Shown here one piece after another: positions 44,044 through 64,000 of a DNA stretch of 64,000 nucleotides (its first letter is position 1; the number at the start of each line of letters is the position of its first letter). The position numbers and the translations under genes are program-made. Source of the stretch: Alphaproteobacteria bacterium. GTDB lineage: Bacteria > Pseudomonadota > Alphaproteobacteria > Micavibrionales > UBA2020. The DNA lies in assembly GCA_041287865.1 (NCBI GenBank), contig JBGGMV010000066.1, positions 7,966 through 71,965 of the forward strand. Direction: 5' to 3'. Below the pieces are notes generated by a model, which worked only from the letters and a program-made list of their open reading frames with translations, had not been told where the DNA came from and did no database searches.

Positions 44044-46002
44044 GTGGTTGGGTTTACCAAAATGGCTGAAGATGCTACCGCAAAAGCAGGCGCTGCCAAG
44101 CCAGCGCAACCGAAACCGTCGGGTGGTCTGTCGATGAACCCGTCGCCTGAGGATCTGCTTGTGCCGCCCTCACCCCCCGCACCCTCGGCGGCTCTGCCTG
44201 TGTCGACGGGCGCCGCGATCACCATTTCCGGCGGCGCCAACGCGCCCGCCATGCCCGGCGCGGCAGGCCCCGGCACAGCCCCCGGCGGCGGCAAACGTAT
44301 CGGCGACCGCCTGCTGGAACGCGGCCTCATCACCGAAGACCAGCTCAAGGTCGCCCTGCACGAAAAGAAAACATCTTCAAAGCTGATCGGCGAGATCCTT
44401 GTCGACCTCGGCTTCATTTCCTCGACCGCGCTGTCCGAATTCCTGTCTGAATCCACGGGCCTGCAGCAGTTCGACCCCAAGAAAACGATGCTCGACCCCG
44501 AAGCGCTCGAGATGATCCCGAAGAAGGAAGCGCAGAAGTACCAGATCCTGCCCGTCTCCGTCGACAAGGCCGCGAACCGCGCCGTCATCGCCATGGTCGA
44601 CCCCTACGACGTGGTGGCGCTCGACAAGCTGAAGCAGCTGCTGCCCAAATCCTGCATGATCGTGCCGCAGATCTGCCCGCCCGCGACGCTGGCGGACGCG
44701 ATCCACAAGGCTTACGGCGTCTCCACCTCGATCGACGCGATTTTGAAGGAGCTTGCGGGCGACGCTTCGGCCGCGAAAAAGAACCTCGATACGCTGTCGG
44801 AGGCTGAATCTTATAGTCACCCGCTCGTGCGCCTTGTCAACGCGCTGATCTTCGAAGCCGTGAAAATGGGCGCGTCCGACTTGCACTTCGAGCCCGAAGA
44901 AAACTTCATCCGCCTGCGCTGGCGCATCGACGGCGACCTGATCACCTCGCACACGCTGCACAAGGAATACTGGAGCGGCATCTGCCAGCGCCTGAAGATC
45001 ATGGCCGAGCTGAACATCGCCGACAAATATTCGCCGCAGGACGGCCGCTTCAACCTGAACATGGGCGCGAGGGAAGCCGACTTCCGCGTCTCCTGCCTGC
45101 CGACCGTGCATGGCGAGAACATCGTGCTGCGCGTGCTCGACAAATCGGCGTCCATCGTGCCGCTGACCAAGCTCGGCTTCTCCGAACACAACCTGCGCAT
45201 CATCAAGAAGGCGCAGTCCCGCCCCGAAGGCATCATCATCGTCACGGGCCCCACCGGCTCAGGGAAAACAACGACGCTCTACTCGATGCTGAACGACGTG
45301 AACACGCCCGACGTGAACATCCAGACGCTGGAAGACCCGGTCGAATATAACCTGGGCATGATCAGGCAGTCGCACGTGAAAGAGGGCGGCGGTTTCACCT
45401 TCGGCGAGGGCGTGAAAGCGCTCCTGCGCCAGGACCCTGACATCATCTTCATCGGCGAGGTCCGCGACCTCGTGACCGGCGAGCAGGCGCTGAAAGCCGC
45501 CATGACCGGCCACCAGGTCTATACCTCGCTCCACACCAACGACTGCTTCGGCGCCGTGCCGCGCCTGGTCGACATGGGCCTGAAGCCCGGCATGATTTCG
45601 GGCGCGATTATCGCAACCTTTGCGCAGCGACTTGTCAGAAAGCTTTGCCAGAAGTGCAAGAAACCTGCGGCGGCCACGCCCGAAGAATGCAAGATGCTGA
45701 GGGACGGCCCCGACGGCAAGGCAATCGACCCTGCCAACCCGCCCACGATCTACCATCCCGGCGGCTGCCCGGATTGCAATAATACCGGCTTCAAGGGCCG
45801 TATCGCCTGCGTCGAGATCCTTTACTTCGACGACGATATGGACGCGCTGGTGGCGCAGGGCGCGCACAAGGCCGAAATGAAGAAAGTGGCGCTCACCAAG
45901 GGCTTCAAGAGCATGCTCGACGACGGCATCGTCAAGATCTACGAAGGCACGACCAGCCTTGATCAGGCCAGCAAGTCCCTGAACTTCGCCGACCGCCTCT
46001 AG
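44044..46002 (+). CDS. pilB: Type IV pilus assembly ATPase, PilB/GspE family, with MshEN/T2SSE_N-type N-domain
   Basis: Carries Walker A (GPTGSGKTTTLYS), Asp/His boxes and a C-terminal tetracysteine (CQKC...CPDC). The N-domain reads RIGDRLLERGLITEDQLKVAL / LIGEILVDLGFISSTAL. It has an Ala/Pro-rich leader of about 75 aa. GTG start, 11 nt after GGAGGA. Confidence 0.9.
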   Translation: MVGFTKMAEDATAKAGAAKPAQPKPSGGLSMNPSPEDLLVPPSPPAPSAALPVSTGAAITISGGANAPAMPGAAGPGTAPGGGKRIGDRLLERGLITEDQLKVALHEKKTSSKLIGEILVDLGFISSTALSEFLSESTGLQQFDPKKTMLDPEALEMIPKKEAQKYQILPVSVDKAANRAVIAMVDPYDVVALDKLKQLLPKSCMIVPQICPPATLADAIHKAYGVSTSIDAILKELAGDASAAKKNLDTLSEAESYSHPLVRLVNALIFEAVKMGASDLHFEPEENFIRLRWRIDGDLITSHTLHKEYWSGICQRLKIMAELNIADKYSPQDGRFNLNMGAREADFRVSCLPTVHGENIVLRVLDKSASIVPLTKLGFSEHNLRIIKKAQSRPEGIIIVTGPTGSGKTTTLYSMLNDVNTPDVNIQTLEDPVEYNLGMIRQSHVKEGGGFTFGEGVKALLRQDPDIIFIGEVRDLVTGEQALKAAMTGHQVYTSLHTNDCFGAVPRLVDMGLKPGMISGAIIATFAQRLVRKLCQKCKKPAAATPEECKMLRDGPDGKAIDPANPPTIYHPGGCPDCNNTGFKGRIACVEILYFDDDMDALVAQGAHKAEMKKVALTKGFKSMLDDGIVKIYEGTTSLDQASKSLNFADRL

Positions 46003-46124
46003 GCCAGCACCCCGCACGCCGTGACTCTGTATATTCCCGCCCTATATCTATTCCGGGGGCGAATATATTTCGTCGTGAGACCCGAATACAAGTGCTTGGT
46101 TTACCTTCATAATTGGTGTAACAC

Positions 46125-46142
46125 TATAAGGTGTGTTTTGGG
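46125..46142 (+). promoter_or_regulatory. Cluster cis-motif copy (TATAAGGTGTGTTTTGGG), upstream of pilC
   Basis: The 12-mer TATAAGGTGTGT is identical to 53882-53893. It lies 36 nt before the pilC ATG. Confidence 0.55.
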
Positions 46143-46177
46143 TCGTATGACACTACAGGGGGCGTTCGTCTTTAATC

Positions 46178-47392
46178 ATGCCTAAGTTCAGTTACAGGGC
46201 TATCAATCCGAAGGGCCGGCCGGTGCGGGGCGTTGTGAACGCCGCCAACGAGACGGATTTGTTCAATCGCTTGCAAGAAACGGGCATGAACCTGCTCGAC
46301 TGCAAGGAGATGAGCGAAAAATCCAACAAGCTGGCGGCCCTGACCGCCAAGAAGGTCAAGGTCCGCGACCTGATCCAGATGTTCGTCCACCTCGAACAGC
46401 TGCAGAAGGCCGGGGTTCCCTTGCTGGATTCAATTACCGACGTGCGCGACACCGCTGAATCGACCCGCCTGCGCGACATCATGAGCGATATTTACGCCGA
46501 AGTGACGGCGGGCTCCTCGTTCTCCAACGCGCTGGCCAAGCACCCCGGCACCTTCCCCGCCATCTTCATCTCGCTCATCAACGCGGGCGAGGAAACGGGT
46601 AACCTCACCAACTCGTTCGTGCAGGTCATCAAGCACCTGAAGTGGACGGACGCGATGGACACCAAGGTGAAAAAGGCGACGCGCTATCCCAAGGTTCTCT
46701 GCGTGGTCGTCGTCGGCGTTATTTACGTGATGCTGGGCCACGTCGTGCCCGAGGTCGTCGGATTCCTGCGCAACATCGGGCAGGAACTGCCGCCGATCAC
46801 GCAGGCGCTGATCTCCACCTCCGACTTCGTGGTGGGCTATTTCGGCTATATCATCGGCGTGATCATCCTCATCATGGTCATCCTGCGCGTCGGGCGCCTG
46901 ATGTCGGAGGATTTCAAGTACCGCACCGACTACATCGCGCTGCGCATGCCGGTGATGGGCAACCTGATCCGCAAAATCTCGCTCTCGCGCTTCTGCCAGA
47001 CCTTCGGCGTCCTCTTCACCTCGGGTCTCGAGATCCTGAAATGCCTCGAGGCCGCGAAGCAGACCTCGGGCAACCTCGTCATCACCGAGGCGCTGGAATC
47101 GGTCAAGACGCAGGTGCAGGAAGGCTCGGGCCTTTCCCATGCGCTCAACTCCTCGGGCGAATTCCCGTCGCTGGTCGTGCGCATGGTCAAGATCGGCGAG
47201 GAATCGGGTAACCTGACGGGCGTTCTGGAACAGGTGTCGGAATTCTACGACAAGGACGTCAACGAAGCCGTCGACGCGATGATCCAGATGATCGAACCCG
47301 CGCTGACCGTCGTGCTCGGCGGCATGCTGCTGTGGATCGCGGCCGCCGTCTTCGGCCCCGTTTACGACAGCTTCGGCAAGATGGGCGGATAA
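46178..47392 (+). CDS. pilC: Type IV pilus platform protein, PilC/GspF family
   Basis: 404 aa with two GspF repeats and 3 TM helices, including the (ESGNL) motif. Confidence 0.9.
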   Translation: MPKFSYRAINPKGRPVRGVVNAANETDLFNRLQETGMNLLDCKEMSEKSNKLAALTAKKVKVRDLIQMFVHLEQLQKAGVPLLDSITDVRDTAESTRLRDIMSDIYAEVTAGSSFSNALAKHPGTFPAIFISLINAGEETGNLTNSFVQVIKHLKWTDAMDTKVKKATRYPKVLCVVVVGVIYVMLGHVVPEVVGFLRNIGQELPPITQALISTSDFVVGYFGYIIGVIILIMVILRVGRLMSEDFKYRTDYIALRMPVMGNLIRKISLSRFCQTFGVLFTSGLEILKCLEAAKQTSGNLVITEALESVKTQVQEGSGLSHALNSSGEFPSLVVRMVKIGEESGNLTGVLEQVSEFYDKDVNEAVDAMIQMIEPALTVVLGGMLLWIAAAVFGPVYDSFGKMGG

Positions 47393-47395: not shown

Positions 47396-49033
47396 ATGGT
47401 TGCGCTGGGCGGCGGCAAAAGGGTTCTTCTGGTCGGCGGCGAGGGCGTTGTGCTTTACGCGCCGCACGGCCGCGGCATGGAGCGCGAAACATCCATCTCG
47501 TGGGAAGTGCCCAACTTCGACCAGCAGCTGGCCGAGGCGCTTTCCGCCAAGAACCAGAGCAAGTCTGTCGTGGTGCTTTTCGACGGCACCGACCAGACCT
47601 ACCGCCGCGAGGAACTGGCCGCGAAACTTTCCATCATCGACCGCCCGAAATTCGTGAAGCGGAAACTCGAACTCGCCTTCCCGAGCTACCCGATCCGCGC
47701 CTCGCTTGAAATCAAGCCGCCCAAGAAAAAAGGCCGGCAGCCCAAGGGCGCCAAGACCGAGCTGCCCTCGTTCCTTTTCGTGGCGCTGCCCGAAACCGAG
47801 CAGCTCGACCGCATCGGCAACGCGATGTACGAGGCGGGCGTGCCCGTCGCGGGCTTCGGCCTGCTGCCGCTTGAATCGATGGGTCTCGTCAACGAGATGT
47901 CCGACAAGGTTTTTGGCGGCCGCGGCAAGAAATCGCGCTGGGCGGTGCTGGTCGGCCAGCATGAAACCGGCGGCCTGCGTCAGGTTGTGATTAAAGACGG
48001 CAACCTGGCGCTGACGCGCCTTACCCCGACGTCGGAAGCCGGCACCAGCGGCACGGGCTGGGTGGAAGAAGTCACGCGCGAATTGAAGGCAACGCTCACC
48101 TATATCTCGCGCTTCGGCTACAGCAACGACGACGGTCTCGACATCGTGGTCGTCTGCGGCGACGTGGAAAAACAGTTTTTCGACACCCGCGCCATCCCGG
48201 TCACCAATTTCCAGTGCGTCAACGTGTCGGAAGCGATGCGCCATATCGGCCTGCGTTCCTTCGGCATGGAGAAAAGCAATTTCGCCGACGCGCTGCACGC
48301 CGCCTGGGCGTCGCGCAAGACCGGGCTCAAGCTCGCGGTCAAGGTTCCCTCCATCCAGCGCATCATGGCGCCGCGCCTTGCCGCGCGCGTCGGCTCGGTG
48401 CTGCTCGCGCTCTCCATCCTCGGCCTGATGGGCTTCACCGCGCAGGGCTTCCAGGAATACCGCTCGCTCGAGGAAGAAATCGCCGGCAAGCAGAACCGCA
48501 AGACGATGCTCGACCGCGAATACGAGCAGGAGGCGAAGATCTTCGACACGCTGGCGGTCAAGCCCGATGTCGTCAAGGCCGCGCTGTCGGTCAAGAAACT
48601 GCTGGAAACCAACAGCGTCGACCTGCGCCCGATCCTGCATTCGCTGAAAAACACGCTGCCATCTGACGTTAGAATCGAGAACCTGAATATCGAGCACAAC
48701 GCCTCCAGCCACCTCAAGGTCGCCGATGCCTCCAGCGGCGCCGGGCTGTTCGGCGTGCCGGAAGAAGTCACCGACCCCGGCAAGGTGCGCATCAACCTTT
48801 CCTATTCGCTGCCGGACAACCTGATCCTCGAGCAGAAAGTGCTGCGCTCGGAAGACCTCCTGAAGAAACTGAAAACGGCCTTCCCGGGCTTCGAGGTCTC
48901 GCTGAAGAAGCAATTCGGCGGCGTGGAACGCACCGGCTCGGCCGTGGACACACTGGGTAGCCCTGCGCCGACTCCCGGCGGCGGCATGCTGGACCTGGCT
49001 GAAATCGAACTCAGGGGAGCGCCCCTCAAATGA
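47396..49033 (+). CDS. Pilus assembly protein, PilM-like cytoplasmic domain fused to a TM helix and PilN-like periplasmic domain
   Basis: 545 aa. The first ~330 aa look cytoplasmic, followed by one TM helix (VGSVLLALSILGLMGFTAQGF), a coiled coil and a periplasmic domain. It is positioned after pilC and before a PilO-like gene. Confidence 0.65.
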   Translation: MVALGGGKRVLLVGGEGVVLYAPHGRGMERETSISWEVPNFDQQLAEALSAKNQSKSVVVLFDGTDQTYRREELAAKLSIIDRPKFVKRKLELAFPSYPIRASLEIKPPKKKGRQPKGAKTELPSFLFVALPETEQLDRIGNAMYEAGVPVAGFGLLPLESMGLVNEMSDKVFGGRGKKSRWAVLVGQHETGGLRQVVIKDGNLALTRLTPTSEAGTSGTGWVEEVTRELKATLTYISRFGYSNDDGLDIVVVCGDVEKQFFDTRAIPVTNFQCVNVSEAMRHIGLRSFGMEKSNFADALHAAWASRKTGLKLAVKVPSIQRIMAPRLAARVGSVLLALSILGLMGFTAQGFQEYRSLEEEIAGKQNRKTMLDREYEQEAKIFDTLAVKPDVVKAALSVKKLLETNSVDLRPILHSLKNTLPSDVRIENLNIEHNASSHLKVADASSGAGLFGVPEEVTDPGKVRINLSYSLPDNLILEQKVLRSEDLLKKLKTAFPGFEVSLKKQFGGVERTGSAVDTLGSPAPTPGGGMLDLAEIELRGAPLK

Positions 49034-49683
49034 AACTGATCGGCCTTAAACGCGCCATCATCCTTGCCGTGCTGTTCGCCATCAACCTGGCGATCGCGGC
49101 GGTCTATTTCCTGCAGGTCATGCCGATGGCCGAGGAATCGGCGCGCAACCTCGACAACATCAACAGCCAGATCTCCGCGACCAGCCAGAAAATATCCTCG
49201 ATCAAGGCGGATCTTGAAACCTTCAAGACCACGCTGCCGCAGTTCCGCGAGCTGGAGGCCAAGGGCTTCACGCTGCCGCAGGACCGTTTCCGCATGAGCC
49301 GCGACCTCGACGCCGTGCGCCTGAAGGCCGAGCTCGGTGGCTTCAAGTTCACCATCAACGACATCCGGAAGGTCGACAACCCCGACATCGACCCGACGAC
49401 GATGCAGCTGATCTACCGCCGCATCAAGGTCGACAACGTCGAATCGCTGCTCGACACCAACTTCTTCACCTTCATCGACGCGATGCAGCGCGACTTCCCG
49501 ACGCATACCCGCTTCCAGTCGATGCAGATGCGGCGCAAGGACCCGCTGAACGGCGCCGCGCTGGCCAAGATCCAGAAAAAGGAACGCGTCGACCTGATCA
49601 CGGCCGAAGCGCAGTTCGACTGGCTGACGATCATTCCGAAGGCAACCGAAGAATCGGGCACCGGCCCGACGGGAGGCCTGTAA
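49030..49683 (+). CDS. PilO-like pilus assembly protein
   Basis: 217 aa with an N-terminal TM helix (AIILAVLFAINLAIAAVYFL), a coiled coil and a C-terminal domain. It has a 4-nt overlap with the upstream gene. Confidence 0.6.
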   Translation: MKLIGLKRAIILAVLFAINLAIAAVYFLQVMPMAEESARNLDNINSQISATSQKISSIKADLETFKTTLPQFRELEAKGFTLPQDRFRMSRDLDAVRLKAELGGFKFTINDIRKVDNPDIDPTTMQLIYRRIKVDNVESLLDTNFFTFIDAMQRDFPTHTRFQSMQMRRKDPLNGAALAKIQKKERVDLITAEAQFDWLTIIPKATEESGTGPTGGL

Positions 49684-49684: not shown

Positions 49685-50443
49685 ATGAAGGCCGCCGCCC
49701 CGAAGCCGACCGCCACGAAATACGGCTGGATCATCGCCGCCGCCTGCCTTGCCGTGCTGGGCCTGTCGCCCGTGGCGCGCGCGCAGCTGGGCGATGTCGG
49801 CATTGCTTCCGGCGCCGCCGGCATGATGAACAACAACCCGATTGCGCAGGGCGCGCAGCAGACGCAGGCTGCCGCGGCGCTTGCCGCCGGCCAGCCCGCT
49901 GCCGCAGTTGCGCCCGGCACGCCGCCGGCTGCGGCTGCTCCGGCAGGAGCGCCTGCTGCCGCAGCGCCCGCAGGGGCACCCGTCGCCGCAGCAGCGCCGG
50001 CAACAGCCGCTGCCGCGATGTCCGTGCCGGCGCCCGAGGCACCGGCGGTCACCGACCTGAAATCGCCTTTCGTGCAGTCGCTTTTCTTCTCGCCGCAGGA
50101 CATCATTGCGATCAAGAAAGCTTCCGAAACGCGCGGACCGATCGACACCACAGGCGGTGTGCAGACGCAGACGCCCGTGATCCCGATGAACCGCTACATT
50201 GCCGTTTCCGGCATCAGCTATAAATCGCCCGACAACTGGGTGGTCTGGATCAACGGCCGCAAGGTCGTCAAGGGCGGCGAAGGCGTGCTGAAGGAACTGG
50301 TCGAGATCAAGCCGCAGAAAGATTACGTCGACCTGCTCTGGTTCGATATCGGCCTCAACGGCACGATCAAGATCAAGATGCGCCCCAACCAGACCTATTA
50401 TATAGTGCCGGGCCTGCTCCTGCCGGGGGTTGCACACGAATGA
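49685..50443 (+). CDS. PilP-like / unknown periplasmic pilus component with Ala/Pro-rich linker
   Basis: 252 aa with a signal/TM segment (WIIAAACLAVLGLSPVARA), a long A/P-rich region and a small C-terminal beta-rich domain. Confidence 0.55.
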   Translation: MKAAAPKPTATKYGWIIAAACLAVLGLSPVARAQLGDVGIASGAAGMMNNNPIAQGAQQTQAAAALAAGQPAAAVAPGTPPAAAAPAGAPAAAAPAGAPVAAAAPATAAAAMSVPAPEAPAVTDLKSPFVQSLFFSPQDIIAIKKASETRGPIDTTGGVQTQTPVIPMNRYIAVSGISYKSPDNWVVWINGRKVVKGGEGVLKELVEIKPQKDYVDLLWFDIGLNGTIKIKMRPNQTYYIVPGLLLPGVAHE

Positions 50444-51210
50444 CGGCACTCGCCCAGACCATGCCCGATCCCGCCATTCCGGCGGTGAGCATCAAGCAGG
50501 TATCCGCCGGCTACAAGCACGGCATGGTGATCGAGGACATCGATTTCGAGGTCAGGCAGGGCGAAACCTTCGGCCTGATCGGGCTGAACGGCGTCGGCAA
50601 GACGACGCTCATCAAGATCATGCTGGGCCTGATGGAGGCCAAGAAGGGTTCGGTCGAGATTTTCGGCGGCAAGTCGCTGGACGCCGCCACCAAGAAAAAA
50701 ATCGCCTACCTGCCCGAAAAATTCGAGCCGCCGCCGTTCCTGTCGGCGCTCGAATTCGTCAAATTCTCGCTCGACCTCTACAAGCAGCCTTTCTCGGAAG
50801 AAGCGGTGATGAAAGCCGCTGACCGTGTGTCGCTGACGCGCGCCGCGGTCAAGCGCCGCGTGTCGACCTATTCGAAAGGCATGCGCCAGAAGACGGGGCT
50901 GATCGGCACCTGGCTGACCGGCTGCCCGCTGCTGATACTGGACGAGCCGATGAGCGGCCTCGATCCTCTCGCCCGCGTGCTGGTGAAGGACGAGATCGCC
51001 GCCTGCCGCAAGGCCGGCATGACCGTTTTTTTATCGTCGCACATCCTCGCCGACATGGACGAAATTTGCGACCGCATCGCCGTCATCCACGACGGCCGCC
51101 TGCGCTTCACCGGCACGCCTGCCGAGCTGAAGGCGCAGACGAAGCAGGAATACCTCGAGCGGGCATTCCTGAAAACAATCGAAGGTTCAACAAGGGTCTA
51201 TGAATCATGA
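50440..51210 (+). CDS. ABC transporter ATP-binding protein embedded in the pilus operon
   Basis: Has Walker A (GLNGVGKTT), the signature YSKGMRQ and Walker B (LLILDEPMSGLD). It has 4-nt overlaps with both neighbouring genes. Confidence 0.88.
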   Translation: MTALAQTMPDPAIPAVSIKQVSAGYKHGMVIEDIDFEVRQGETFGLIGLNGVGKTTLIKIMLGLMEAKKGSVEIFGGKSLDAATKKKIAYLPEKFEPPPFLSALEFVKFSLDLYKQPFSEEAVMKAADRVSLTRAAVKRRVSTYSKGMRQKTGLIGTWLTGCPLLILDEPMSGLDPLARVLVKDEIAACRKAGMTVFLSSHILADMDEICDRIAVIHDGRLRFTGTPAELKAQTKQEYLERAFLKTIEGSTRVYES

Positions 51211-56328: not shown

Positions 56329-56383
56329 CTCGCGCGCCCTGTTTAGACATAACTTTTTTGGGAAAGTCGGGGCCTTCAAGATC

Positions 56384-58219
56384 ATGTTCGCATCAGGTCG
56401 CTTCGGCCGCTTCGGCGGTTTCATTGTCACGGTTCTTGCGGTGGTCTTCCTCACCAGCTGCCAGGCAGCCAAGAACCAGCTGCAGTTCGACCGCAGCGCC
56501 GAGCTGGATCGCCAGGATTACCGCGACGCGCTGGCGCCGAACACGCTGCCGCCGGATTCCGAAGTGCCCACGCCTGAATTCCAGGCCGTTCTCTCCACGC
56601 CCGAAGAACTGCGCCTGCCGTCGCCGCTGGTCAGCGTTCAAGTCAACCAGACCGTCGGCCTGCGCGACCTGATCTGGCAGCTGGCCGAACAGGCCGATAT
56701 CGATGTCGAACTGGATCCGCAAATCCACGGCACGATCAGCTTCACCGCCAAGGAACGCCCGTTCGACGAAGTCATCCAGCGCATCTGCGACATGGCCGGC
56801 CTGCGCTACAAGTTTGACAACGCCGTCCTGCGCGTCGAGCTCGACCGCCCCTATACCCACAACTACAGCGTCGATTTCATCAACGTCGCGCGCCGCGGCA
56901 GCATGGGCATCAACACCAGCATCAGCCTGGCGTCCACCGAAGGCGGCGCCGCAGGCAGCGGCAGCTCGTCCTCGAACGTCAGCAACGAGATCAACGGCGA
57001 CATGTGGAAAGAGCTGAACGACGGCATGGAACAGCTGCTGTCGTCTTCCGACACATATATATCGCTGGCTACGCTGACCGATCCGGTGACGGCGCCTGCC
57101 GTGCCTGCGCCGCCGCCGCCGCCCGCGAACCCCGACCAGCCCCCGCCGCCCCCGCCGCTGCCGGGCGATCCCGCCGTCGCGCCGCTGCCGGCCGCCGTCG
57201 CGCCTGTGCTCAACATCACCACGCCGCCCGGCGAACCGATGGTGCCGAACCCGCCCGCGACCTTCTCGATCAGCCGCCAGTCCGGCATCGTCAGCGTCTT
57301 CGCGAGCGAGCGCCAGCAGCGCCTTGTGCAGCGTTTCATGAACGATTTCCGCCGCCGCGTCGGCACACAGGTGCTGATCGAGGCGAAAGTGCTGCAGGTC
57401 GAGCTTAACGACGAATATGCCGCCGGCATCAACTGGTCGGACGTCGACCTGACCGGCCTGCTGAAAGTGACGCAGGGATACACCTTCCCCGGCATCACGG
57501 GCCTGAACGGCAGCAACTTCGGCCTGACCTTTGACCACGGCAACTTCAGCGCGGCGCTGCAGGCGATGAACCGCTTCGGCAGCATCCGCATCCTGTCCAG
57601 CCCGCGCGTGACGGTGATGAACAACCAGCCCGCCGTCGTCAACGTGACGCAGAGCTTCGTCTACTTCGACTTCGACGTCGAGGCCGGCACGACCGACACC
57701 AACGGCGTGACCACGCCGCCCACCATCGACGGCGAAGTGCGCTCGGTGCCCGAAGGCGTGCTGCTCAACGTCGTGCCGACCGCGAACCCCGACACCGGCG
57801 AAATCGTCCTTGTCGTGCGTCCGACGGTTTCCAAGATCACGAACACGATTCCCGACCCGACGGTCGGCCTGACGCTGGCGCTGAACGGCGGCGTGCCGCC
57901 CGGCGTCGAAGTGCCCACCAACGAAATCCCGCGCGTCGCGTTGCAGGAAATCGATTCTGTCATGCGTCTCCAGTCCGGCCAGATGATGGCCCTGGGCGGG
58001 TTGATGGAAGACGAAAACACCATCCAGCAGGACGGCGTTCCGATTGCGTCGGACATGCCGATCCTGGGCGCGCTCTTCCGCACCCATAAAGACACGCTGC
58101 GCAAGAGCGAGCTGGTCATCTTCCTGAAGGCCTCCATCATCGCCGGCTCGAACGTCGACGAGATGGAGAAGAAGACTTACAAGGTCTTCTCGCTGGACCG
58201 CCGTCCGGCGCGCCTCTAA
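56384..58219 (+). CDS. Secretin (PilQ/GspD family), lipoprotein-type signal
   Basis: Starts at MFASGRFG, with lipobox FLTSC. It has a poly-Pro linker and a C-terminal secretin domain (ILSSPRVTVMNNQPAVVNV, VPIASDMPILGALFR). Confidence 0.88.
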   Translation: MFASGRFGRFGGFIVTVLAVVFLTSCQAAKNQLQFDRSAELDRQDYRDALAPNTLPPDSEVPTPEFQAVLSTPEELRLPSPLVSVQVNQTVGLRDLIWQLAEQADIDVELDPQIHGTISFTAKERPFDEVIQRICDMAGLRYKFDNAVLRVELDRPYTHNYSVDFINVARRGSMGINTSISLASTEGGAAGSGSSSSNVSNEINGDMWKELNDGMEQLLSSSDTYISLATLTDPVTAPAVPAPPPPPANPDQPPPPPPLPGDPAVAPLPAAVAPVLNITTPPGEPMVPNPPATFSISRQSGIVSVFASERQQRLVQRFMNDFRRRVGTQVLIEAKVLQVELNDEYAAGINWSDVDLTGLLKVTQGYTFPGITGLNGSNFGLTFDHGNFSAALQAMNRFGSIRILSSPRVTVMNNQPAVVNVTQSFVYFDFDVEAGTTDTNGVTTPPTIDGEVRSVPEGVLLNVVPTANPDTGEIVLVVRPTVSKITNTIPDPTVGLTLALNGGVPPGVEVPTNEIPRVALQEIDSVMRLQSGQMMALGGLMEDENTIQQDGVPIASDMPILGALFRTHKDTLRKSELVIFLKASIIAGSNVDEMEKKTYKVFSLDRRPARL

Positions 58220-58249: not shown

Positions 58250-59071
58250 ATGATCTCAGGTCCGCTGATCAGGTTCGTGCTGACCGCCGCTTTCCGCGAC
58301 AAGCTGCTGCTGACCCTGCTCGTCATGATCGGGACGGGCACGGGCCTTGCGATGTTCCTGGGCGACGCGGCGATGACCGAAAAGGAAAGCTTCGCGCTGG
58401 TCTTCGGCGCTTCGGGCTTGCGTTTCCTCTCCGTCATCGGCGTGGTACTGTTCTGCTGCTTCTACGTGCGCCGCGCCTTCGAGACCAAGGAAGTCGAATT
58501 CCTGCTCTCCCGCCCGCTGTCCCGCATGTCCTTCCTGTTTAACCATGCCCTGGCCTTCATGCTGCTGGCCGCGCTGGTCACGCTGGCGGTGGTGGCGGCT
58601 GTCTTCTGCCTTGGCAAGCCTGACATGGGCGGCCTTGCTGCCTGGGGCTTCAGCATCGGCATCGAAAACATGATCATGGCGGTCACCGCGCTCTTTTTCT
58701 CGATGGTGCTGTCCTCGGCCGCCGGCTCGGCGCTCGCCACGCTCGGCGTCTATGTGCTGGCGCGACTGATGGGCACGCTGCTGGGCATCGCGGCGGTGAC
58801 GCCGGAAAAAGTGGTTTTCGCCGTGCTCAACAACGTCATGAACCTCGTCTCCGTCGTGGTGCCGCGCCTTGACCTGATGGGCCAGACGTCGTGGCTCGTC
58901 TATGGCGTCGAGGGCTCCGGCGGCATCGACTTCCTCGAGCGCGCGGGCACCTACGCGCACCAGCTGATGGGAACGCTGGGTATCATGGGCTTCATGGCGG
59001 CGCAGGGGGTGGTGTTTATCGGGCTGATGCTCTTCGCCGCCGCCTTCGACTTCTTGCGGCGGCAGTTCTGA
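58250..59071 (+). CDS. Multi-pass membrane protein, possible ABC-2-type permease partner of the 50440 ATPase
   Basis: 273 aa with about 6 TM helices. The permease role is inferred from topology and context only. Confidence 0.6.
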   Translation: MISGPLIRFVLTAAFRDKLLLTLLVMIGTGTGLAMFLGDAAMTEKESFALVFGASGLRFLSVIGVVLFCCFYVRRAFETKEVEFLLSRPLSRMSFLFNHALAFMLLAALVTLAVVAAVFCLGKPDMGGLAAWGFSIGIENMIMAVTALFFSMVLSSAAGSALATLGVYVLARLMGTLLGIAAVTPEKVVFAVLNNVMNLVSVVVPRLDLMGQTSWLVYGVEGSGGIDFLERAGTYAHQLMGTLGIMGFMAAQGVVFIGLMLFAAAFDFLRRQF

Positions 59072-59853
59072 TGGCGCCGGCACAGCTCAAAAAAGCTGTG
59101 AACGCGGGGCTGCTGGCTTTCCTCGGCCTTAACTTCCTTCTCTGGTACGCCAGCTCGGATATCTACGCGCGCTGGGAAGGCGTGCCGCCCCCGCCGTCGG
59201 AGAAAAGCGCGCGGCTGATGACGCTGGGCGACGCGCAGTTTTCCTACCGCTTCGGCGCGATCACGCTGCAGAACCTCGGCGACGGCGGCGGCCGCGTGAC
59301 AAGCTTGCGCGATTACGACTACGGGCGCCTTGGCAAATGGTTCTGGCTGCTCAACAGCCTCGATCCGGCCTCGAACCACGTGCCGATGGTGGCGGCCTAT
59401 TACTTCGGCGGCAGCGGCACGCCCAAGGACATCATCGTGGTCGTCGATTACCTTGCGGCGATCGGCGTCAACCCGGTCGGCAACAAATGGCGCTGGCTGG
59501 CGCATGCGATCTTCCTCGCACGGCACCACCTGAACGACCTCAAGCGCGCGCTCGACCTTGCCTACAGGCTGTCGAAGATGGAGCCCATCGGCGACACGCT
59601 GCCGGAATGGGCGCGGCAGATGCCGGCCTTCGTGCTGTCGGAGCAGGGCGACAAGCAGGCCGCGCGCAAGATCATCGAAAACCTCCTGCTAAGCAGCCGG
59701 CGCTTCCACCCCAACGAAGTCAATTTCATGAAGCACTGGCTGACCGTCGAGCTGGGCGTCGATCCGCAGGAAGTCGACATGATACTCAAGATGCGCGGCC
59801 CGGATCAGCCCTTGCCGGACGGCCCGCGGATCGCACCACCGGCGCCCGAGTGA
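59071..59853 (+). CDS. Hypothetical membrane-anchored protein
   Basis: Starts at MAPAQLKKAVNAGLLAFLGLNFLLWY; the start ATG overlaps the upstream TGA. It has one TM helix and a soluble helical domain. I recognise no family. Confidence 0.55.
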   Translation: MAPAQLKKAVNAGLLAFLGLNFLLWYASSDIYARWEGVPPPPSEKSARLMTLGDAQFSYRFGAITLQNLGDGGGRVTSLRDYDYGRLGKWFWLLNSLDPASNHVPMVAAYYFGGSGTPKDIIVVVDYLAAIGVNPVGNKWRWLAHAIFLARHHLNDLKRALDLAYRLSKMEPIGDTLPEWARQMPAFVLSEQGDKQAARKIIENLLLSSRRFHPNEVNFMKHWLTVELGVDPQEVDMILKMRGPDQPLPDGPRIAPPAPE

Positions 59854-59881: not shown

Positions 59882-60979
59882 GTGATCGGACTGGACTATG
59901 CCACCACTTTCAGCCTGATAGAATGGCTGGCCGTCACCGGCCTGGTGCAGTGCGTCTTTATCCTTGTCTATACGGCCTTTCGCGCGCGCAACTGGCGTCA
60001 GGCGGCGATCGCCTTCGCCTATTTCCTCTGCCTTGCGGCGGCCTTCGGCCTGCAGTTCTCGTTGCGTCTCACCTATATCGAGCAGCCGCTGCGCGTTGCC
60101 CTGTGGTTCTTCTGGGCGATGGGCGCGCCGCTGTGCTTTCTGCTGGTGCACCAGGTCGTCAAGCTGACCGAGGTGCCGGAGCGGCGGCACCTGCTGGTTC
60201 TCTTTATCATGCCGCTGGTTTTCGCGGCGGCCTTCGCGCTGCAGCGCACGCGCCATCTGTGCGAAGGCGGCGACTGGCTCTGCCCGCGCTTTATTGACGT
60301 GCTGTCCTGGCTGGGCGGCATGGCGGGGGCGCTTTGCATGCTGGCGCTCTGGGCGCAGAAGGACATGTTCGGCAAGCTCTGGCGGCAGAGGGGCGCCCGC
60401 GAGCGCTACTGGCTGGTCATGACGCTGGTGCTGGCGAACGTCATGGGCGTCATCGTCAGCCTGCTGAACGCAACAGGATATCTTGACCGCACCGACCATG
60501 ACGCGCTGCATGTGATCCTCGGGATCGCCTTCGCCTATCTTGCAACGACAACATTGTTCCGTGTCTATCCGCTGCCCGTGGCGATGAGCGCGGCGTCGCG
60601 CGCGCGGGCGCTTTTGCTCACCGAGGAAGAAAAGCGAATCGCCGAAAAAGTCCAGAAGCTCATGGAGCTGGACAAGCTGTACCACGAGCATACTTTCAGC
60701 CGCGCCGACCTGGCGCGCGAGGTGGGGGCGTCCGAAAATACGCTGTCGCGCGTCATCAACATCGCCTTTGGCCGCAGTTTCCCCCGTTTGCTCAACGAAT
60801 TCAGGGTGGAAGACGCAAAACGGATGCTGGCCGATCCCGCGATCCCGATCCATGTGCTTGCCTCCGAAGTGGGCTTTAACTCGCTGGCGTCGTTCAATCG
60901 TGTCTTTCGCGCGCTCACCGGCGAGACGCCATCCTCCTACAGGGCGGCGCATACCGCTGCGACAGAAAAAAACCCGTAA
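59882..60979 (+). CDS. AraC-family transcriptional regulator with N-terminal polytopic membrane domain
   Basis: GTG start. The first ~240 aa contain 6-7 hydrophobic helices. The C-terminus has the AraC HTH (FSRADLAREVGASENTLSRVIN...VGFNSLASFNRVFRALTGETPSSYR). Confidence 0.85.
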   Translation: MIGLDYATTFSLIEWLAVTGLVQCVFILVYTAFRARNWRQAAIAFAYFLCLAAAFGLQFSLRLTYIEQPLRVALWFFWAMGAPLCFLLVHQVVKLTEVPERRHLLVLFIMPLVFAAAFALQRTRHLCEGGDWLCPRFIDVLSWLGGMAGALCMLALWAQKDMFGKLWRQRGARERYWLVMTLVLANVMGVIVSLLNATGYLDRTDHDALHVILGIAFAYLATTTLFRVYPLPVAMSAASRARALLLTEEEKRIAEKVQKLMELDKLYHEHTFSRADLAREVGASENTLSRVINIAFGRSFPRLLNEFRVEDAKRMLADPAIPIHVLASEVGFNSLASFNRVFRALTGETPSSYRAAHTAATEKNP

Positions 60980-61432
60980 TTGGCATTTCTTTGCGCCGGG
61001 ACGCAGTAAAATAATCATCAAAACGTAAAATTCTGTTTTAATGATTCTCACTTTGTCCCGCAGGACACAGCGTGACGTTTTGGTAACTCTGTTGGCGGTG
61101 TCGAGAGCAGGACGCGCAGGATCATGCAAAAGACGCTGAATCGCTCTTCATCTTGACGATGTAAAGAGTGTACGTGCGTACGGGAAAATCCCACATAAAT
61201 CATCAGTATATGTCAACGCAGACTGCTTATTTTGTCATGGTGAGCAATGAAACGACTGAAATTAAACATTCGTTTAACTTTTTTGTTGAATTATAGGGAT
61301 TAGGCCACCAAACTTGTGCATGACCTTCCTGCCTATTGTCGGCAGACGAGCTTTCAGAACACATCTAATGGGGCAGACTCAAGGGACGGTTTTAATTAAC
61401 GAACTAAATAAGACCAACATAGGGGAAAATTC

Positions 61433-62272
61433 ATGAAAAGAGTTAATGCACAAAAGGGCTTCACGCTCGTCGAATTGGCGATCGTGATGACCATCATCGG
61501 CCTGCTGATCGGCGGGATTCTGAAAGGGCAGGAACTGATGGAAAACGCCCGCGTGACCTCGACCGTCGCGCAGGTGAAATCCTATTCGGCTGCCGTCACC
61601 AGCTTCAAGGACATGTACCAGTCCTATCCCGGTGACATGCCCGGCGCGGGCACCCGCCTTGTCGGCTGCCCCGGCGCGTCCGGTGCTGCTTGCGACCCTG
61701 TTACCGGCGCCGGTAACGCGGGTAACAACATCGTCGGCCTGACCACCTGGAGCACGGCTTGGGGCGCGCCTGGCGTGACCGCAACCACCGGCACCACGGC
61801 TGCCACGGCTGTCGACTCGGAAAAATACCTCTTCTGGGCGCACCTGCTGCTTGCCAACCTGATCGGCGGCGTGACGGATGAAGGCCTGAACAACGCGATC
61901 GCGTTCCAGTTCGGCCGCACCCATCCTGAAGCCAAGATCTCGGGCGGCTTTACGGCAGGCTATGCTACGGGCGTGATTGGCCCGGGCTCGCTGCAGCCTG
62001 CAGGCACCGGCATCTCGGGCACCATCCTCGCGCAGGTGGTTGCACCCGATGCAGCCCTGCCGGTCACGGCAAGCTCGAACCCTCTTGCTCCTCTGCGCGC
62101 CGCGCAGATCGACCGCAAGATGGATGACGGCCGCCCCGGCACCGGATATGTCCAGGCCTTCGGCCTCGGCACGTCCTGCTTCACGACCGCCACGGCCGGC
62201 ACGACGCAGTACACCTACAACGAGACCATCGCTACGAAAGACTGCGGTCTCCTGTTCCGTATTGAAGGCTAA
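61433..62272 (+). CDS. Type IVa pilin, large (279 aa), tandem copy 1
   Basis: The sequence MKRVNAQKG|FTLVELAIVMTIIGLLIGG has a short leader, Gly-1, Phe+1 and Glu+5. A C-terminal Cys pair (SCFTT...KDCG) forms a D-region-like loop. Confidence 0.92.
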   Translation: MKRVNAQKGFTLVELAIVMTIIGLLIGGILKGQELMENARVTSTVAQVKSYSAAVTSFKDMYQSYPGDMPGAGTRLVGCPGASGAACDPVTGAGNAGNNIVGLTTWSTAWGAPGVTATTGTTAATAVDSEKYLFWAHLLLANLIGGVTDEGLNNAIAFQFGRTHPEAKISGGFTAGYATGVIGPGSLQPAGTGISGTILAQVVAPDAALPVTASSNPLAPLRAAQIDRKMDDGRPGTGYVQAFGLGTSCFTTATAGTTQYTYNETIATKDCGLLFRIEG

Positions 62273-62280
62273 TCAAACGA

Positions 62281-62315
62281 AAAAAACCCGGGGGGTTTCC
62301 CCCGGGTTTTTTTTG
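62281..62315 (+). terminator. Rho-independent terminator after pilin copy 1
   Basis: aaaaaacccgggggg ttt cccccgggtttttttt. Confidence 0.85.
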
Positions 62316-62392
62316 ACTCAAGCACTATATGAACTCGTCTCTACCAAGTGAACTTCCTCAAAAATCATGAAAAATCATGGGAGAAAAAATTC

Positions 62393-63232
62393 ATGAAAAG
62401 ACTAAACACACAAAAGGGCTTCACCCTCGTCGAGTTGGCGATCGTGATGACCATCATCGGTCTGCTGATCGGCGGTATTCTGAAGGGGCAGGAACTGATG
62501 GAAAACGCCCGCGTGACCTCGACCGTCGCGCAGGTGAAATCATATTCGGCTGCCGTCACCAGCTTCAAGGACATGTACCAGTCCTATCCCGGTGACATGC
62601 CCGGCGCAGGCACCCGTCTTGTGGGCTGCCCCGGCGCTTCCGGTGCCGCTTGCGACCCTGTTACCGGCGCTGGTAACGCGGGTAACAACATCGTCGGCCT
62701 GACCACCTGGAGCACGGCCTGGGGCGCGCCCGGCGTGACCGCAACCACCGGCACCACGGCCGCCACGGCTGTCGACTCGGAAAAATATCTTTTCTGGGCC
62801 AACCTGCTGCTCGCTAACCTGATCGGCGGTATCACGGATGAAGGCCTGAACAACGCGATCGCGTTCCAGTTCGGCCGCACCCATCCTGAAGCCAAGATCT
62901 CGGGCGGCTTTATCGCGGGCTATGCTACGGGCGTGATCGGCCCGGGCTCGCTGCAGCCTGCAGGCACCGGCATCTCGGGCACCGTTCTCGCGCAAGTGGT
63001 TGCACCTGCAGCCGCCCTGCCGGTCACGGCAAGCTCGAACCCTCTTGCTCCCCTGCGCGCCGCGCAGATCGACCGCAAGATGGATGACGGCCGCCCCGGC
63101 ACCGGCTATGTCCAGGCCTTCGGCCTCGGCACGTCCTGCTTCACGACCGCCACAGCCGGCACGACGCAGTACACCTACAACGAGACCATTGCTACCAAAG
63201 ACTGCGGTCTCCTGTTCCGTATTGAGGGCTAA
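62393..63232 (+). CDS. Type IVa pilin, tandem copy 2
   Basis: Starts at MKRLNTQKGFTLVELAIVM and is 279 aa. It is nearly identical to copy 1. The upstream Met of track ORF 62348 lies in non-homologous leader sequence. Confidence 0.92.
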   Translation: MKRLNTQKGFTLVELAIVMTIIGLLIGGILKGQELMENARVTSTVAQVKSYSAAVTSFKDMYQSYPGDMPGAGTRLVGCPGASGAACDPVTGAGNAGNNIVGLTTWSTAWGAPGVTATTGTTAATAVDSEKYLFWANLLLANLIGGITDEGLNNAIAFQFGRTHPEAKISGGFIAGYATGVIGPGSLQPAGTGISGTVLAQVVAPAAALPVTASSNPLAPLRAAQIDRKMDDGRPGTGYVQAFGLGTSCFTTATAGTTQYTYNETIATKDCGLLFRIEG

Positions 63233-63250
63233 TCACCTTCTTCTCTAGCA

Positions 63251-63281
63251 AAAAGCCCGGGGGCGACCCCGGGTTTTTTTG
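63251..63281 (+). terminator. Rho-independent terminator after pilin copy 2
   Basis: aaaaagcccggggg cga ccccgggttttttt. Confidence 0.85.
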
Positions 63282-63506
63282 TTTGCGTTCCTTGATTTCC
63301 CCTCTGTCGGGGGCACTTTGATAAACAGGCGTTTAAAAATATGAGAGGTTCCGATGGAACTTTTTTACCGGAACAATGTTAGACGGCTAGTACCAAAATC
63401 GTATTGCCCGCGATGGCTAACAAAAAGTTTACGCCGCGTTGACGGCGCAACCACCGCCCCGCTGGCAGGGGACGACATCAAGTAGCGCGTAAGGGGAGTT
63501 CAGAAC

Positions 63507-64000
63507 ATGAATAAAACGAACACACAAAAAGGCTTCACACTCGTCGAATTGGCGATCGTGATGACCATCATCGGCCTGCTGATCGGCGGGATTCTGAAAG
63601 GGCAGGAACTGATGGAAAACGCCCGCGTGACCTCGACCGTCGCGCAGGTTAAATCCTATTCGGCTGCCGTCACCAGTTTCAAGGACATGTACCAGTCTTA
63701 TCCGGGTGACATGCCCGGCGCAGGCACCCGTCTTGTGGGCTGCCCCGGCGCGTCCGGCGCGTCCTGCAACCCTGTTACCGGCGCCGGTAACGCGGGTAAC
63801 AACATCATCGGCCTGACAACCTGGAGCGCGGCCTGGGGCGCGCCCGGCGTGACCGCGACCACCGGCACCACGGCGGCCACGGCTGTCGACTCGGAAAAAT
63901 ACCTCTTCTGGTCGCACCTGCTGCTTGCCAACCTGATCGGCGGCGTGACGGATGAAGGCCTGAACAACGCGATCGCGTTCCAGTTCGGCCGCACGCATCC
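63507..64000 (+). CDS. Type IVa pilin, tandem copy 3 (partial, runs off the right window edge)
   Basis: Not in the ORF track because there is no stop. ATG 63507 gives MNKTNTQKGFTLVELAIVMTIIGLLIGGILKGQELMENARV..., collinear with copies 1 and 2. An AAGGGGAG RBS lies upstream. Confidence 0.9.
   Translation, partial: MNKTNTQKGFTLVELAIVMTIIGLLIGGILKGQELMENARVTSTVAQVKSYSAAVTSFKDMYQSYPGDMPGAGTRLVGCPGASGASCNPVTGAGNAGNNIIGLTTWSAAWGAPGVTATTGTTAATAVDSEKYLFWSHLLLANLIGGVTDEGLNNAIAFQFGRTH

Follow-up and report, generated by a model that had tools for sequence, protein, structure and literature searches.

The window (the whole analysed stretch, 64,000 nucleotides) carries a cluster from position 44044 to its end at 64000, entirely on the + strand, that is predicted to encode a complete, retractable type IV pilus machine at a single locus. 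All 15 items listed in the original prediction were found as open reading frames on this strand, essentially where it had placed them. The host is an uncultured, Micavibrio-like alphaproteobacterium, in keeping with an alpha_tmRNA match. The features of the cluster are:

44044-46002, +, PilB-type extension ATPase with an N-terminal MshEN c-di-GMP-binding domain (PF00437 1e-113, PF05157)
46178-47392, +, PilC/GspF inner-membrane platform protein (PF00482 twice)
47396-49033, +, putative PilM-PilN fusion, MshI/GspL-like, 545 aa (AF2 model, Foldseek, weak profile match)
49030-49683, +, bitopic coiled-coil protein at the PilO/MshJ/GspM position, 217 aa (architecture)
49685-50443, +, periplasmic protein at the PilP/MshK position, 252 aa (architecture)
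50440-51210, +, ABC ATPase of the DrrA/NosF/ABCA-like type V (ABC-2) class (PF00005 2.5e-24)
51207-52955, +, bitopic TPR protein with an MshN/TadD/PilW-like TPR domain (TPR families)
52960-53772, +, prepilin peptidase, PilD (PF06750 3.6e-30, PF01478)
53943-55175, +, PilT retraction ATPase with a Pro/Ala/Lys-rich C-terminal tail (TIGR01420)
55172-56296, +, PilU-type second retraction-family ATPase (TIGR01420)
56300-58219, +, outer-membrane secretin, predicted lipoprotein (PF00263 4e-34)
58250-59071, +, ABC-2 (type V) permease, 273 aa (PF12679, family profile)
59071-59853, +, permease partner, an anchor helix at the N-terminus, then a TPR-like, all-alpha solenoid (AF2 model)
59882-60979, +, membrane-embedded AraC-family regulator (PF12833 4e-21, residues 277-355)
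61433-62272, +, major pilin copy 1, 279 aa (PF07963, TIGR02532)
62280-62313, unstranded, strong hairpin after pilin 1, terminator-like on both strands, with flanking A and T runs
62393-63232, +, major pilin copy 2, a direct repeat of 95% identity (N_methyl motif)
63250-63279, unstranded, strong terminator-like hairpin after pilin 2, with a 13-pair stem
63507-64000, +, major pilin copy 3, a direct repeat of 91% identity, cut by the window end

The extension ATPase contains the c-di-GMP motif NF053729 (64.5 bits, cutoff 38). Its best PDB matches are PilF of T. thermophilus and PilB of M. xanthus, with GspE behind, and its N-terminus matches MshE-N (5htl). The true start is uncertain, a low-complexity stretch of about 80 aa lying upstream of the MshEN domain. 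The platform protein scores higher with GspF (TIGR02120, 326 bits) than with the PilC models. PilT and PilU are encoded by genes overlapping by 4 nt and reach 474 and 419 bits, respectively, with TIGR01420 (cutoff 319). An AVRNLIRE motif was identified at residue 288 of PilT, and the AIRNLIRE motif, looked for in the PilU sequence, was absent. The reading as PilT plus PilU stands because AVRNLIRE is found only in the first of these two PilT-family ATPases; the expected complete pilus system with both retraction ATPases is thus borne out.

The envelope-spanning part begins with the PilM-PilN fusion, predicted to comprise a cytoplasmic actin-like domain, one TM helix (328-346 by hydropathy) with a coiled coil, and a periplasmic alpha/beta domain. 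Searches against Pfam and NCBIfam gave no match. The fusion proposed earlier is supported by the AF2 model (pLDDT 77), whose best Foldseek match is P. aeruginosa PilM (5eoy, E 2e-9), followed by FtsA and cyto-GspL, and by a weak profile match to M. xanthus PilN over residues 328-436 (E 0.079). The next two proteins had been called PilO-like and PilP-like, and these names hold for architecture and position only. The first, whose gene overlaps that of the fusion by 4 nt, has a TM segment at 10-28 and gave nothing significant against PDB and Pfam, a 21-sequence profile included. The second, with a signal peptide, an Ala/Pro-rich linker and a conserved C-terminal domain of about 85 aa in the alignment, likewise had no PDB or Pfam match. 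The TPR protein has a TM segment at 54-72 and a low-complexity periplasmic linker of about 300 aa carrying the TPR domain, with TPR families matching only at residues ~390-560 (TIGR02521 PilW, 4e-7).

The probable start of the secretin is the ATG at 56384, immediately upstream of the lipobox. This lipobox, L-T-S-C, is shared by 30 of 31 orthologues, and a signal-peptide Cys is present also in distant relatives. The best NCBIfam match is MshL (TIGR02519, 204 bits, below its cutoff of 250) and the best PDB match is GspD. A PilQ-type secretin was rejected (88 bits against a cutoff of 284).

At the distal end, the AraC regulator comprises 7 predicted TM segments followed by the HTH, and its position is conserved in one class of related loci (type A, below). 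At least three pilin genes had been predicted, and three copies carrying the N-methylation motif were identified, the third ending at the window edge. Copy 1 has a short leader, a G/FTLVE cleavage site and a GspG-like N-terminus; copy 2 most likely starts at 62393. The hairpin between them has a 15-pair stem with 8 GC pairs. The reported lack of minor pilins proved to be an effect of the window edge, as relatives encode three large prepilin-like proteins (443, 425 and 743 aa) downstream of the major pilin.

The ABC ATPase has intact and conserved catalytic motifs, namely the Walker A GLNGVGKTT, the signature YSKGM, the Walker B LLILDE and the H-switch. Its family matches are drrA (TIGR01188, 8.6e-43) and GldA (2.7e-38), both under the family cutoffs, and its PDB matches are ABCA NBDs, NosF (6e-34) and PmtC. 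The polytopic protein downstream of the secretin was correctly anticipated to be permease-like. It contains six or seven hydrophobic segments by hydropathy and matches PF12679 with an E of 0.02, a domain precomputed in many of its orthologues; the family profile matches the PmtD permease (6xjh, E 4.6e-4). At 50% identity the permease family comprises 822 clusters among 1.84 billion proteins, and it is found almost only beside secretin genes. The partner has no match among Pfam, NCBIfam and PDB sequences. Its AF2 model (pLDDT 81.5) consists of a helix at 3-35 followed by 11 helices, and its fold matches are to TPR proteins only and weak (NlpI, MamA and PilW, E 0.16-0.6). The anchor helix is moderately hydrophobic, under the 1.6 threshold (about 1.4, our own estimate), and the solenoid is presumably periplasmic. 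By their sequences, ATPase and permease are of the same ABC class, the former with an ABCA/NosF/PmtC-like NBD and the latter PmtD/ABC2_membrane_2-like. Their pairing is inferred from this class and from co-occurrence, the genes lying 7 kb apart.

The predicted overlaps of 4 nt between the ATPase gene and both neighbours were confirmed, an ATGA being common to the PilP-like and ABC genes and again to the ABC and TPR genes, and the permease and partner genes overlap by 1 nt (TGATG). These overlaps suggest translational coupling into the pilus operons. The ATPase evolves slowly, as PilT and PilU do (mean distances 0.32, 0.22 and 0.30, respectively). A rate-covariation test gave no signal.

The neighbourhood was compared in about 130 loci of uncultured Alphaproteobacteria, which fall into three cluster architectures (types A, B and C). 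The same gene order is present in 26 of the 28 species-level genomes with enough flank and recurs in marine and freshwater relatives at greater distance. The ATPase gene is the last of a block formed by PilB, PilC, the PilM-PilN fusion and the 217- and 252-aa proteins, lying immediately downstream of the PilP-like gene in 41 of 44 loci. The permease gene directly follows the secretin gene in at least 93 of 101 loci, with the partner directly downstream of it in 108 of 111. Permease and partner lie upstream of the AraC-pilin genes in type A and immediately upstream of the pilin genes in type B, whose members also carry an MshM-like AAA_22 ATPase. In type-C genomes they accompany the secretin alone, no pilin being nearby. 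The trio of secretin, permease and partner is isolated between housekeeping genes in low-GC freshwater Alphaproteobacteria, which ties permease and partner to the secretin. In one locus (L125), permease and partner follow PilD and precede the pilin, no secretin lying between. A pilin gene is located within 2.3 kb downstream in 49 of 80 loci. The split ABC layout is apparently kept across the three architectures, down to about 30% permease identity. This arrangement is far beyond chance, and ATPase, permease and partner are fixed parts of the pilus system. Co-conservation with the pilus genes in relatives, on which the original prediction had made their membership depend, was found.

The label T4aP was only partly upheld. 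The machine shares with the canonical T4aP of P. aeruginosa and M. xanthus (PilBTCMNOPQ) the PilB, PilC, PilD, PilT and PilU proteins, a short-leader pilin with F+1/E+5 and the tandem retraction motors (pilTU). It departs from it in the secretin, which is not of the PilQ type, in the fused PilM-PilN, the GspF-like PilC, the lack of PilO or PilP family matches, the single-locus layout, the large pilins and the giant prepilin-like minor subunits of relatives. The MSHA pilus of Vibrio cholerae (mshHIJKLMNEGF-BACD), the MSH class of Denise et al. 2019, is alike in its single locus, the MshE-type c-di-GMP-binding N-domain of the extension ATPase, the fused PilM/N (MshI-like), the MshJ/K-like pair and the MshN-like TPR protein, as well as in the MshL match of the lipoprotein secretin (below the family cutoff) and the MshM-like ATPase of type-B relatives. 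However, MshM, which the MSH model treats as mandatory (PMC6668835), is missing from the window cluster. A prepilin peptidase and PilT/PilU are encoded within the cluster, in contrast to MSH loci, which have no peptidase. Unlike MSHA, the cluster has a PilB nearer to that of T4aP than to GspE, and it contains the ABC module, absent from the classical msh gene set (mshH-Q). The machine is a hybrid and not a textbook T4aP, with T4aP-type motors (c-di-GMP-sensing PilB, PilT and PilU) and MSHA/T2SS-like envelope parts (fused PilM-PilN, MshL/GspD-like lipoprotein secretin, MshN/TadD-like TPR protein and GspG-like pilin N-terminus).

An ABC system for T4aP biogenesis is formed in M. xanthus by PilG, PilH and PilI (MXAN_5782, MXAN_5781 and MXAN_5780), with an unresolved mechanism (PMC3546991, PMC3724824, PMC5544727); PilGHI is required for piliation (PMC3724824, PMC5544727). 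Both modules comprise an ATPase, a polytopic permease of ~250 aa and an accessory factor, and both are encoded within a type IV pilus cluster and co-expressed with pilus genes. The differences are the contiguous pilA-G-H-I genes of M. xanthus (PMC3546991), as against an ATPase gene after the PilP-like gene with permease and partner after the secretin 7 kb away, and the host machine, which for PilGHI is a canonical multi-operon T4aP with PilQ, Tgl and separate PilM/N/O/P. The parallel is offered as an analogy. Other type V systems working with an accessory protein in the periplasm or envelope are NosDFY, GldAFG, CcmAB, LptB2FG-LptC and PmtCD. The window NBD is closest to NosF, ABCA, GldA, DrrA and PmtC and the permease to PmtD and ABC2_membrane_2 (the NosY/GldF group), and a bitopic or periplasmic accessory partner is common to all. 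None of these comparators is linked to a secretin or type IV pilus, however, and the TPR-like solenoid is unlike NosD, GldG and LptC. All ABC family scores are under equivalog cutoffs, which indicates a separate family.

The best overall explanation, advanced tentatively, is a pilus machine with a dedicated three-part ABC module that performs assembly work, the secretin being the most likely client. The ATPase dimer would drive the permease by way of the cytoplasmic TM2-TM3 loop of the latter, which is highly conserved. Rather than importing or exporting a solute, the complex would use ATP to do work on the periplasmic side while the machine is assembled, like PilGHI, NosDFY, LptB2FGC and FtsEX. 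Its most likely client would be the lipidated secretin monomer, which may be extracted from the inner membrane or passed to the TPR-like partner for outer-membrane assembly, with handling of the unusually large pilins a close second. The adjacency of secretin, permease and partner and the conserved lipobox Cys count for a secretin client. Secretin pilotins and assembly factors belong to the fold class of the TPR-like partner, and the MshN counterpart TadD is needed for the Tad secretin (PMC6668835). To our knowledge, the lipoprotein secretins of canonical MSHA and T2SS machines need no ABC module for their assembly, and a secretin client is therefore not a necessity. The cluster also contains a second, MshN-like TPR protein, which could be the secretin factor instead.

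The neighbourhood also fits a pilin client, given the pilin genes beside permease and partner in types A and B and the pilin without secretin in L125. A role of this kind, PilGHI-like and rather unlikely as the main explanation, would aid the large pilins (250-280 aa) and giant minor pilins in inner-membrane crossing, extraction or recycling, feeding or relieving the PilC/PilB platform. The position of the ATPase gene at the end of the platform block is consistent with it, as is PmtD, the nearest solved permease relative, which exports membrane-partitioning helical peptides. In M. xanthus, a single operon comprises pilA, pilG, pilH and pilI, and pilin translocation is described as requiring PilGHI (PMC3546991, PMC3724824); the M. 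xanthus pilin is reported to be large as well (PMC11046646). Type-C genomes argue against it, as does secretin adjacency, more constant than pilin adjacency.

It is improbable that the module is an exporter with a substrate of its own (a peptide, a lipid or a glycan precursor) that crosses or leaves the inner membrane and then either serves the pilus machine or secretin or is released through them, for example in pilus modification or as a T2SS-like secreted factor in predation. Most type V ABC-2 systems are exporters, and those for drugs, PSM peptides, lipids and polysaccharides lead the family and PDB matches; secretin, platform and pilin N-terminus are T2SS-like (GspD, GspF and GspG). However, the cluster has no conserved biosynthetic, glycosyltransferase or candidate cargo gene, the presence of PilT and PilU alongside large pilins points to a true retractable pilus, and the modelled partner resembles a protein-binding scaffold and not a known substrate-binding or periplasmic adaptor fold. 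That the ABC genes are an unrelated transporter in the operon, as their separation (unusual for a working ABC pair) and an ordinary ABC-2 pair nearby (38792-40344) might suggest, is hardly credible given the split layout kept across architectures, the coupling into pilus operons, the strong purifying selection on these genes and a permease family almost confined to secretin genes.

The machine family is specific to uncultured Alphaproteobacteria, comprising Micavibrio-like predators and related lineages. Why some pili require an ABC transporter is an unsolved question, for which the cluster of this family provides a second natural example.

The pilus cluster is a near-continuous array of predicted ORFs on the + strand, from position 44044 to the end of the window, where successive genes are separated by -4 to +30 nt with the exception of three larger gaps: PilB to PilC (175 nt), PilD to PilT (170 nt) and the stretch 5' of the first pilin gene (453 nt). 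The upstream edge is placed at about 44044 because an ankyrin-repeat ORF (41902-42462, +) and a DUF2147 ORF (43178-43879, -) flank it on that side. Most items in the gene list of the original prediction were confirmed by Pfam and NCBIfam: the PilB-type ATPase, PilC/GspF, the ABC ATPase, the TPR protein, the prepilin peptidase, two PilT-family ATPases, the secretin, the AraC-type regulator and the pilins, which bear the N-methylation motif. The two PilT-family proteins had been correctly read as PilT and PilU, since the AVRNLIRE motif is restricted to the first of them. The overlap of the ABC ATPase gene with each neighbour by 4 nt, also described there, is seen in the sequence, as is a 1-nt overlap between the permease and partner genes. 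Features of the cluster are the following:

44044-46002, + strand, PilB-type ATPase with an MshEN domain and a c-di-GMP-binding motif above cutoff (Pfam/NCBIfam)
50440-51210, + strand, ABC ATPase
51207-52955, + strand, TPR protein
52960-53772, + strand, prepilin peptidase PilD (Pfam), encoded inside the cluster
53943-55175, + strand, PilT
58250-59071, + strand, permease
59071-59853, + strand, partner of the permease
59882-60979, + strand, AraC-family regulator
61433-64000, + strand, three tandem major pilin genes with 91-95% nt identity

The central point of the prediction, a type IV pilus cluster with an ABC transporter built into it, is correct and the finding is real. When genomes were scanned with the permease as seed, 41 species-level MAGs came up, every one of them a Micavibrio-like or unclassified alphaproteobacterium, and the contexts of distant members together with a metagenome scan revealed three architectures. 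The first (type A) is the layout of the window. Its order, PilMN, the 217-aa and 252-aa proteins, ABC ATPase, TPR protein, PilD, PilT, PilU, secretin, permease, partner, AraC and pilin, is intact in 26 of the 28 loci whose upstream flank was long enough. The other two (type-A loci L020 and L037) are broken between PilD and PilT, with permease and partner remaining beside the secretin; in both, the half from PilMN to PilD, including the ABC ATPase, is not in the 10 kb 5' of PilT. The second (type B) comprises, in order, the TPR protein, an MshM-like AAA_22 ATPase, PilD, secretin, permease, partner, one or more pilins, PilB, PilC, PilMN, sometimes the 217-aa protein, the 252-aa protein and the ABC ATPase. 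The third (type C), from low-GC freshwater Alphaproteobacteria, consists only of secretin, permease and partner amid housekeeping genes. In these Alphaproteobacteria (GC 30-42%) the trio (L118, 8201-11589; L061, 8420-11530; and about 20 similar loci) is sited between nuoF/ispDF and nadC, with no other pilus gene found within 10 kb.

Across all loci, the secretin lies immediately 5' of the permease in at least 93 of 101 loci, most apparent exceptions being alignment gaps and the genuine ones L112, L125 and L086; the partner lies immediately 3' of the permease in 108 of 111; and an ATPase of the system type lies immediately 3' of the PilP-like gene in 41 of 44. In ABC-2 transporters the ATPase and permease of one complex usually have neighbouring genes; here the two genes, 7 kb apart, co-occur in every complete type-A and type-B locus. 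The ABC ATPase is one of the cluster's slowest-evolving proteins (mean distance 0.32, with PilT at 0.22, PilU at 0.30, the permease at 0.46, the secretin at 0.64 and the PilO-like and PilP-like proteins at about 1.1). Gene order, adjacency counts and slow evolution of the ATPase all place the ABC module within the pilus system. Rate covariation among 11 cluster proteins in 19 taxa gave no usable signal on whether permease and partner follow the secretin or the ATPase (permease-partner +0.25, permease-ATPase -0.27, permease-secretin -0.14). The module is a fixed component of the system, translationally coupled and under strong constraint, and its split layout is conserved.

The ATPase retains the Walker A (GLNGVGKTT), signature (YSKGM), Walker B (LLILDE) and H-switch (H201) motifs, all of them conserved in 30 orthologues, and matches PF00005 at 2.5e-24. 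Its best solved relatives are the ABCA NBDs, NosF and PmtC, and the NCBIfam matches, DrrA and GldA, are both below cutoff. It is of the class that matches the permease (type V / ABC-2). The 273-aa membrane protein is an ABC-2 permease with six or seven hydrophobic segments by hydropathy; PF12679 is weak in the window copy (E 0.02, below cutoff) and precomputed in many orthologues, and the family profile finds PmtD, also a permease, at E 4.6e-4. Outside its own family, the 260-aa partner has no relatives by sequence. Its AF2 model (pLDDT 81.5) begins with an N-terminal anchor helix and continues as an all-alpha solenoid of TPR-like form, with generic TPR fold matches only, including NlpI, MamA and PilW. 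Proteins of the system are annotated only as "hypothetical" or "multi-copper enzyme maturation permease". An ordinary ABC-2 pair (38792-40344, +) is found about 4 kb 5' of the cluster, outside the pilus module; ORF 39532-40344 matches PF01061 (ABC2_membrane) and the overlapping ORF 38792-39535 is presumably its ATPase.

The 545-aa PilMN protein had no family match. In its AF2 model (pLDDT 77) an N-terminal actin-like domain, closest among solved structures to P. aeruginosa PilM (E 2e-9) and then to FtsA and GspL's cytoplasmic domain, precedes one TM/coiled-coil helix and a small domain of alpha/beta type, and the profile of the C-terminal part weakly matches M. xanthus PilN (E 0.079). The PilM-like model and the PilN match support the PilM-PilN fusion that had been proposed, as in MshI or GspL. 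The PilO-like and PilP-like assignments stand by architecture: a TM segment plus a coiled coil make up the 217-aa protein, and the 252-aa protein has a signal peptide followed by an Ala/Pro linker and a C-terminal domain of about 85 aa that is conserved, as expected of PilO/MshJ and PilP/MshK, but no match in PDB or Pfam came from profiles built on 21 orthologues apiece.

The pilus machine is a hybrid that fits neither the T4aP nor the MSH class cleanly. The T4aP label first given to it holds for the core of PilB, PilC, PilD and PilT plus PilU, PilB being nearer to T4aP PilB/PilF than to GspE and the PilT/PilU pair being a T4aP trait (PMC6668835). It does not hold for the rest, as T4aP systems have separate PilM, PilN, PilO and PilP and a PilQ-type secretin, whereas here PilM and PilN are fused, PilO and PilP have no family match and the secretin has its top matches in MshL and GspD (88 bits against PilQ TIGR02515, cutoff 284; 204 bits against MshL TIGR02519, below the cutoff of 250). 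PilC scores highest as GspF. The MSHA likeness lies in the fused PilM/PilN and in having all genes in a single locus. The MSH model has mshA, mshE, mshG and mshL plus mshM as mandatory genes (Denise et al. 2019), and MSH loci, for which MshM is mandatory, are without a prepilin peptidase (PMC6668835). The window cluster differs in encoding its own PilD and in lacking MshM: no AAA_22/MshM-like gene was identified in it by Pfam or NCBIfam. It is these mixed traits, with no MshM and its own peptidase, that leave the system without a clean fit to either class. The presence of an MshM-like gene in type-B relatives suggests an MSHA-like ancestry. The ABC ATPase was considered as a stand-in for MshM (AAA_22) by its position in the order I-J-K-[M]-N, and this was rejected since type-B relatives have both. 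A T2SS reading was also rejected because PilT and PilU are present and GspC and the minor pseudopilins GspH-K have no family matches in the cluster (Pfam/NCBIfam).

At the end of the window, pilin copies 1 and 2 are each followed by a strong GC-rich terminator-like hairpin flanked by A and T runs (62280-62313 and 63250-63279). Relatives L002, L004 and L047 carry a single major pilin, and the triplication may serve dosage or variation. The reported absence of minor pilins is an effect of the window edge: the window stops within copy 3, and relatives encode, 3' of the major pilin, three large proteins that resemble prepilins (443, 425 and 743 aa, or 404, 529 and 733 aa; in L002 most of them match the N-methylation motif), with dapE and dapD next. 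No sigma-54 promoter was identified 5' of the pilin genes in 60980-61432, and matches window-wide were fewer than expected by chance.

Some proteins of the cluster have additional elements. The AraC-family regulator, which type-A loci keep between the partner and pilin genes, is joined in one protein with seven predicted TM segments and could be a sensor of membrane pilin or of envelope state. A PAS-GGDEF protein is encoded 3' of the partner gene in the type-B locus L049 (10871-12577); together with the MshEN motif of PilB in the window, this suggests c-di-GMP control of extension. PilT bears an unusual Pro/Ala/Lys-rich C-terminal tail of about 65 aa (residues ~345-410) beyond its conserved core. 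The TPR protein starts with an acidic N-terminus on the cytoplasmic side, crosses the membrane once (TM segment at residues 54-72) and has, ahead of the TPR domain, an Ala/Pro/Thr-rich repetitive linker of about 300 aa, a length that suffices to reach across the periplasm.

Since the description of PilGHI in Myxococcus in 1998, it has been an open question why an ABC transporter is needed by some type IV pili. By analogy, M. xanthus PilGHI, already named as the precedent, is the closest functional one, alike in composition (ATPase, permease and accessory factor) and in being encoded inside a type IV pilus cluster. In M. xanthus the genes form a contiguous pilA-G-H-I operon with the major pilin gene (PMC3546991), whereas here the layout is split, the ATPase lying 3' of the PilP-like gene and the permease and partner 3' of the secretin. 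Type IV pili equipped with an accessory ABC system are a kind already known, and the alphaproteobacterial variant is new; no account of this alphaproteobacterial system was found in the literature, including for Micavibrionales pili, and the Micavibrio genome paper presents dispersed pil genes only.

The module is quite probably an integral accessory of pilus assembly. The NBD dimer would drive the permease via the cytoplasmic TM2-TM3 loop (RRxFExxEVEFLLSRPxSR), the most conserved segment of the permease in the alignments, and the complex would act on a pilus component at the periplasmic face with no solute moved. Secretins are established clients of TPR proteins, among them PilW/PilF/Tgl and TadD/MshN. 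For TadD and MshN this is stated in PMC6668835. The secretin is tentatively favoured as the client because the secretin-permease-partner trio is constant, essentially every locus has a secretin predicted to be a lipoprotein and the partner is TPR-like. A pilin client, a somewhat unlikely alternative, is consistent with the ATPase gene sitting after the platform genes, with the pilin genes coming after the partner in types A and B, with the relation of the permease to PmtD and with the PilGHI precedent (PMC3724824, PMC3546991). A more specific form of the secretin reading, unlikely as it stands, is an ATP-driven envelope mechanotransducer dedicated to the secretin. Permease and TPR-like partner would pull the lipidated monomer from the inner membrane, bypassing or supplementing Lol, and the monomer would be chaperoned to the outer membrane, or else cytoplasmic ATP hydrolysis would be coupled to secretin assembly or gating. 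If true, it would be the first case of secretin biogenesis or piloting powered by an ABC system, as well as a hint at the role of PilGHI in Myxococcus. Export of a cargo by the module is less likely and rather improbable, and a passenger role in the cluster is very unlikely.

An NCBI MAG named "Alphaproteobacteria bacterium" encodes a hypothetical protein identical to the 545-aa one, and an "uncultured Micavibrio sp." MAG has the closest locus, with 82-98% protein identity for most genes compared. Rfam identified no riboswitch or other RNA in the cluster, its sole match being the alphaproteobacterial two-piece tmRNA (32136-32527, +, RF01849, 230 bits), an independent taxonomic marker.

Counting about 130 loci and, in a profile search across 1.84 billion representatives, 822 permease clusters (50% identity), this is an independent and widely conserved case of a pilus with an ABC system, and it extends the range of MSHA/T4aP-hybrid machines into the Alphaproteobacteria. 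Its layout is informative, with the ATPase tied to the inner-membrane alignment genes and the permease and TPR-like partner tied to the lipoprotein secretin and the pilins. The conserved split makes the old PilGHI question testable, turning a vague ABC requirement into two models, one with the secretin as client and one with the pilin. Micavibrio-like epibiotic predators, in which pili are the expected mediators of prey attachment, likely have this system as their main retractable pilus.
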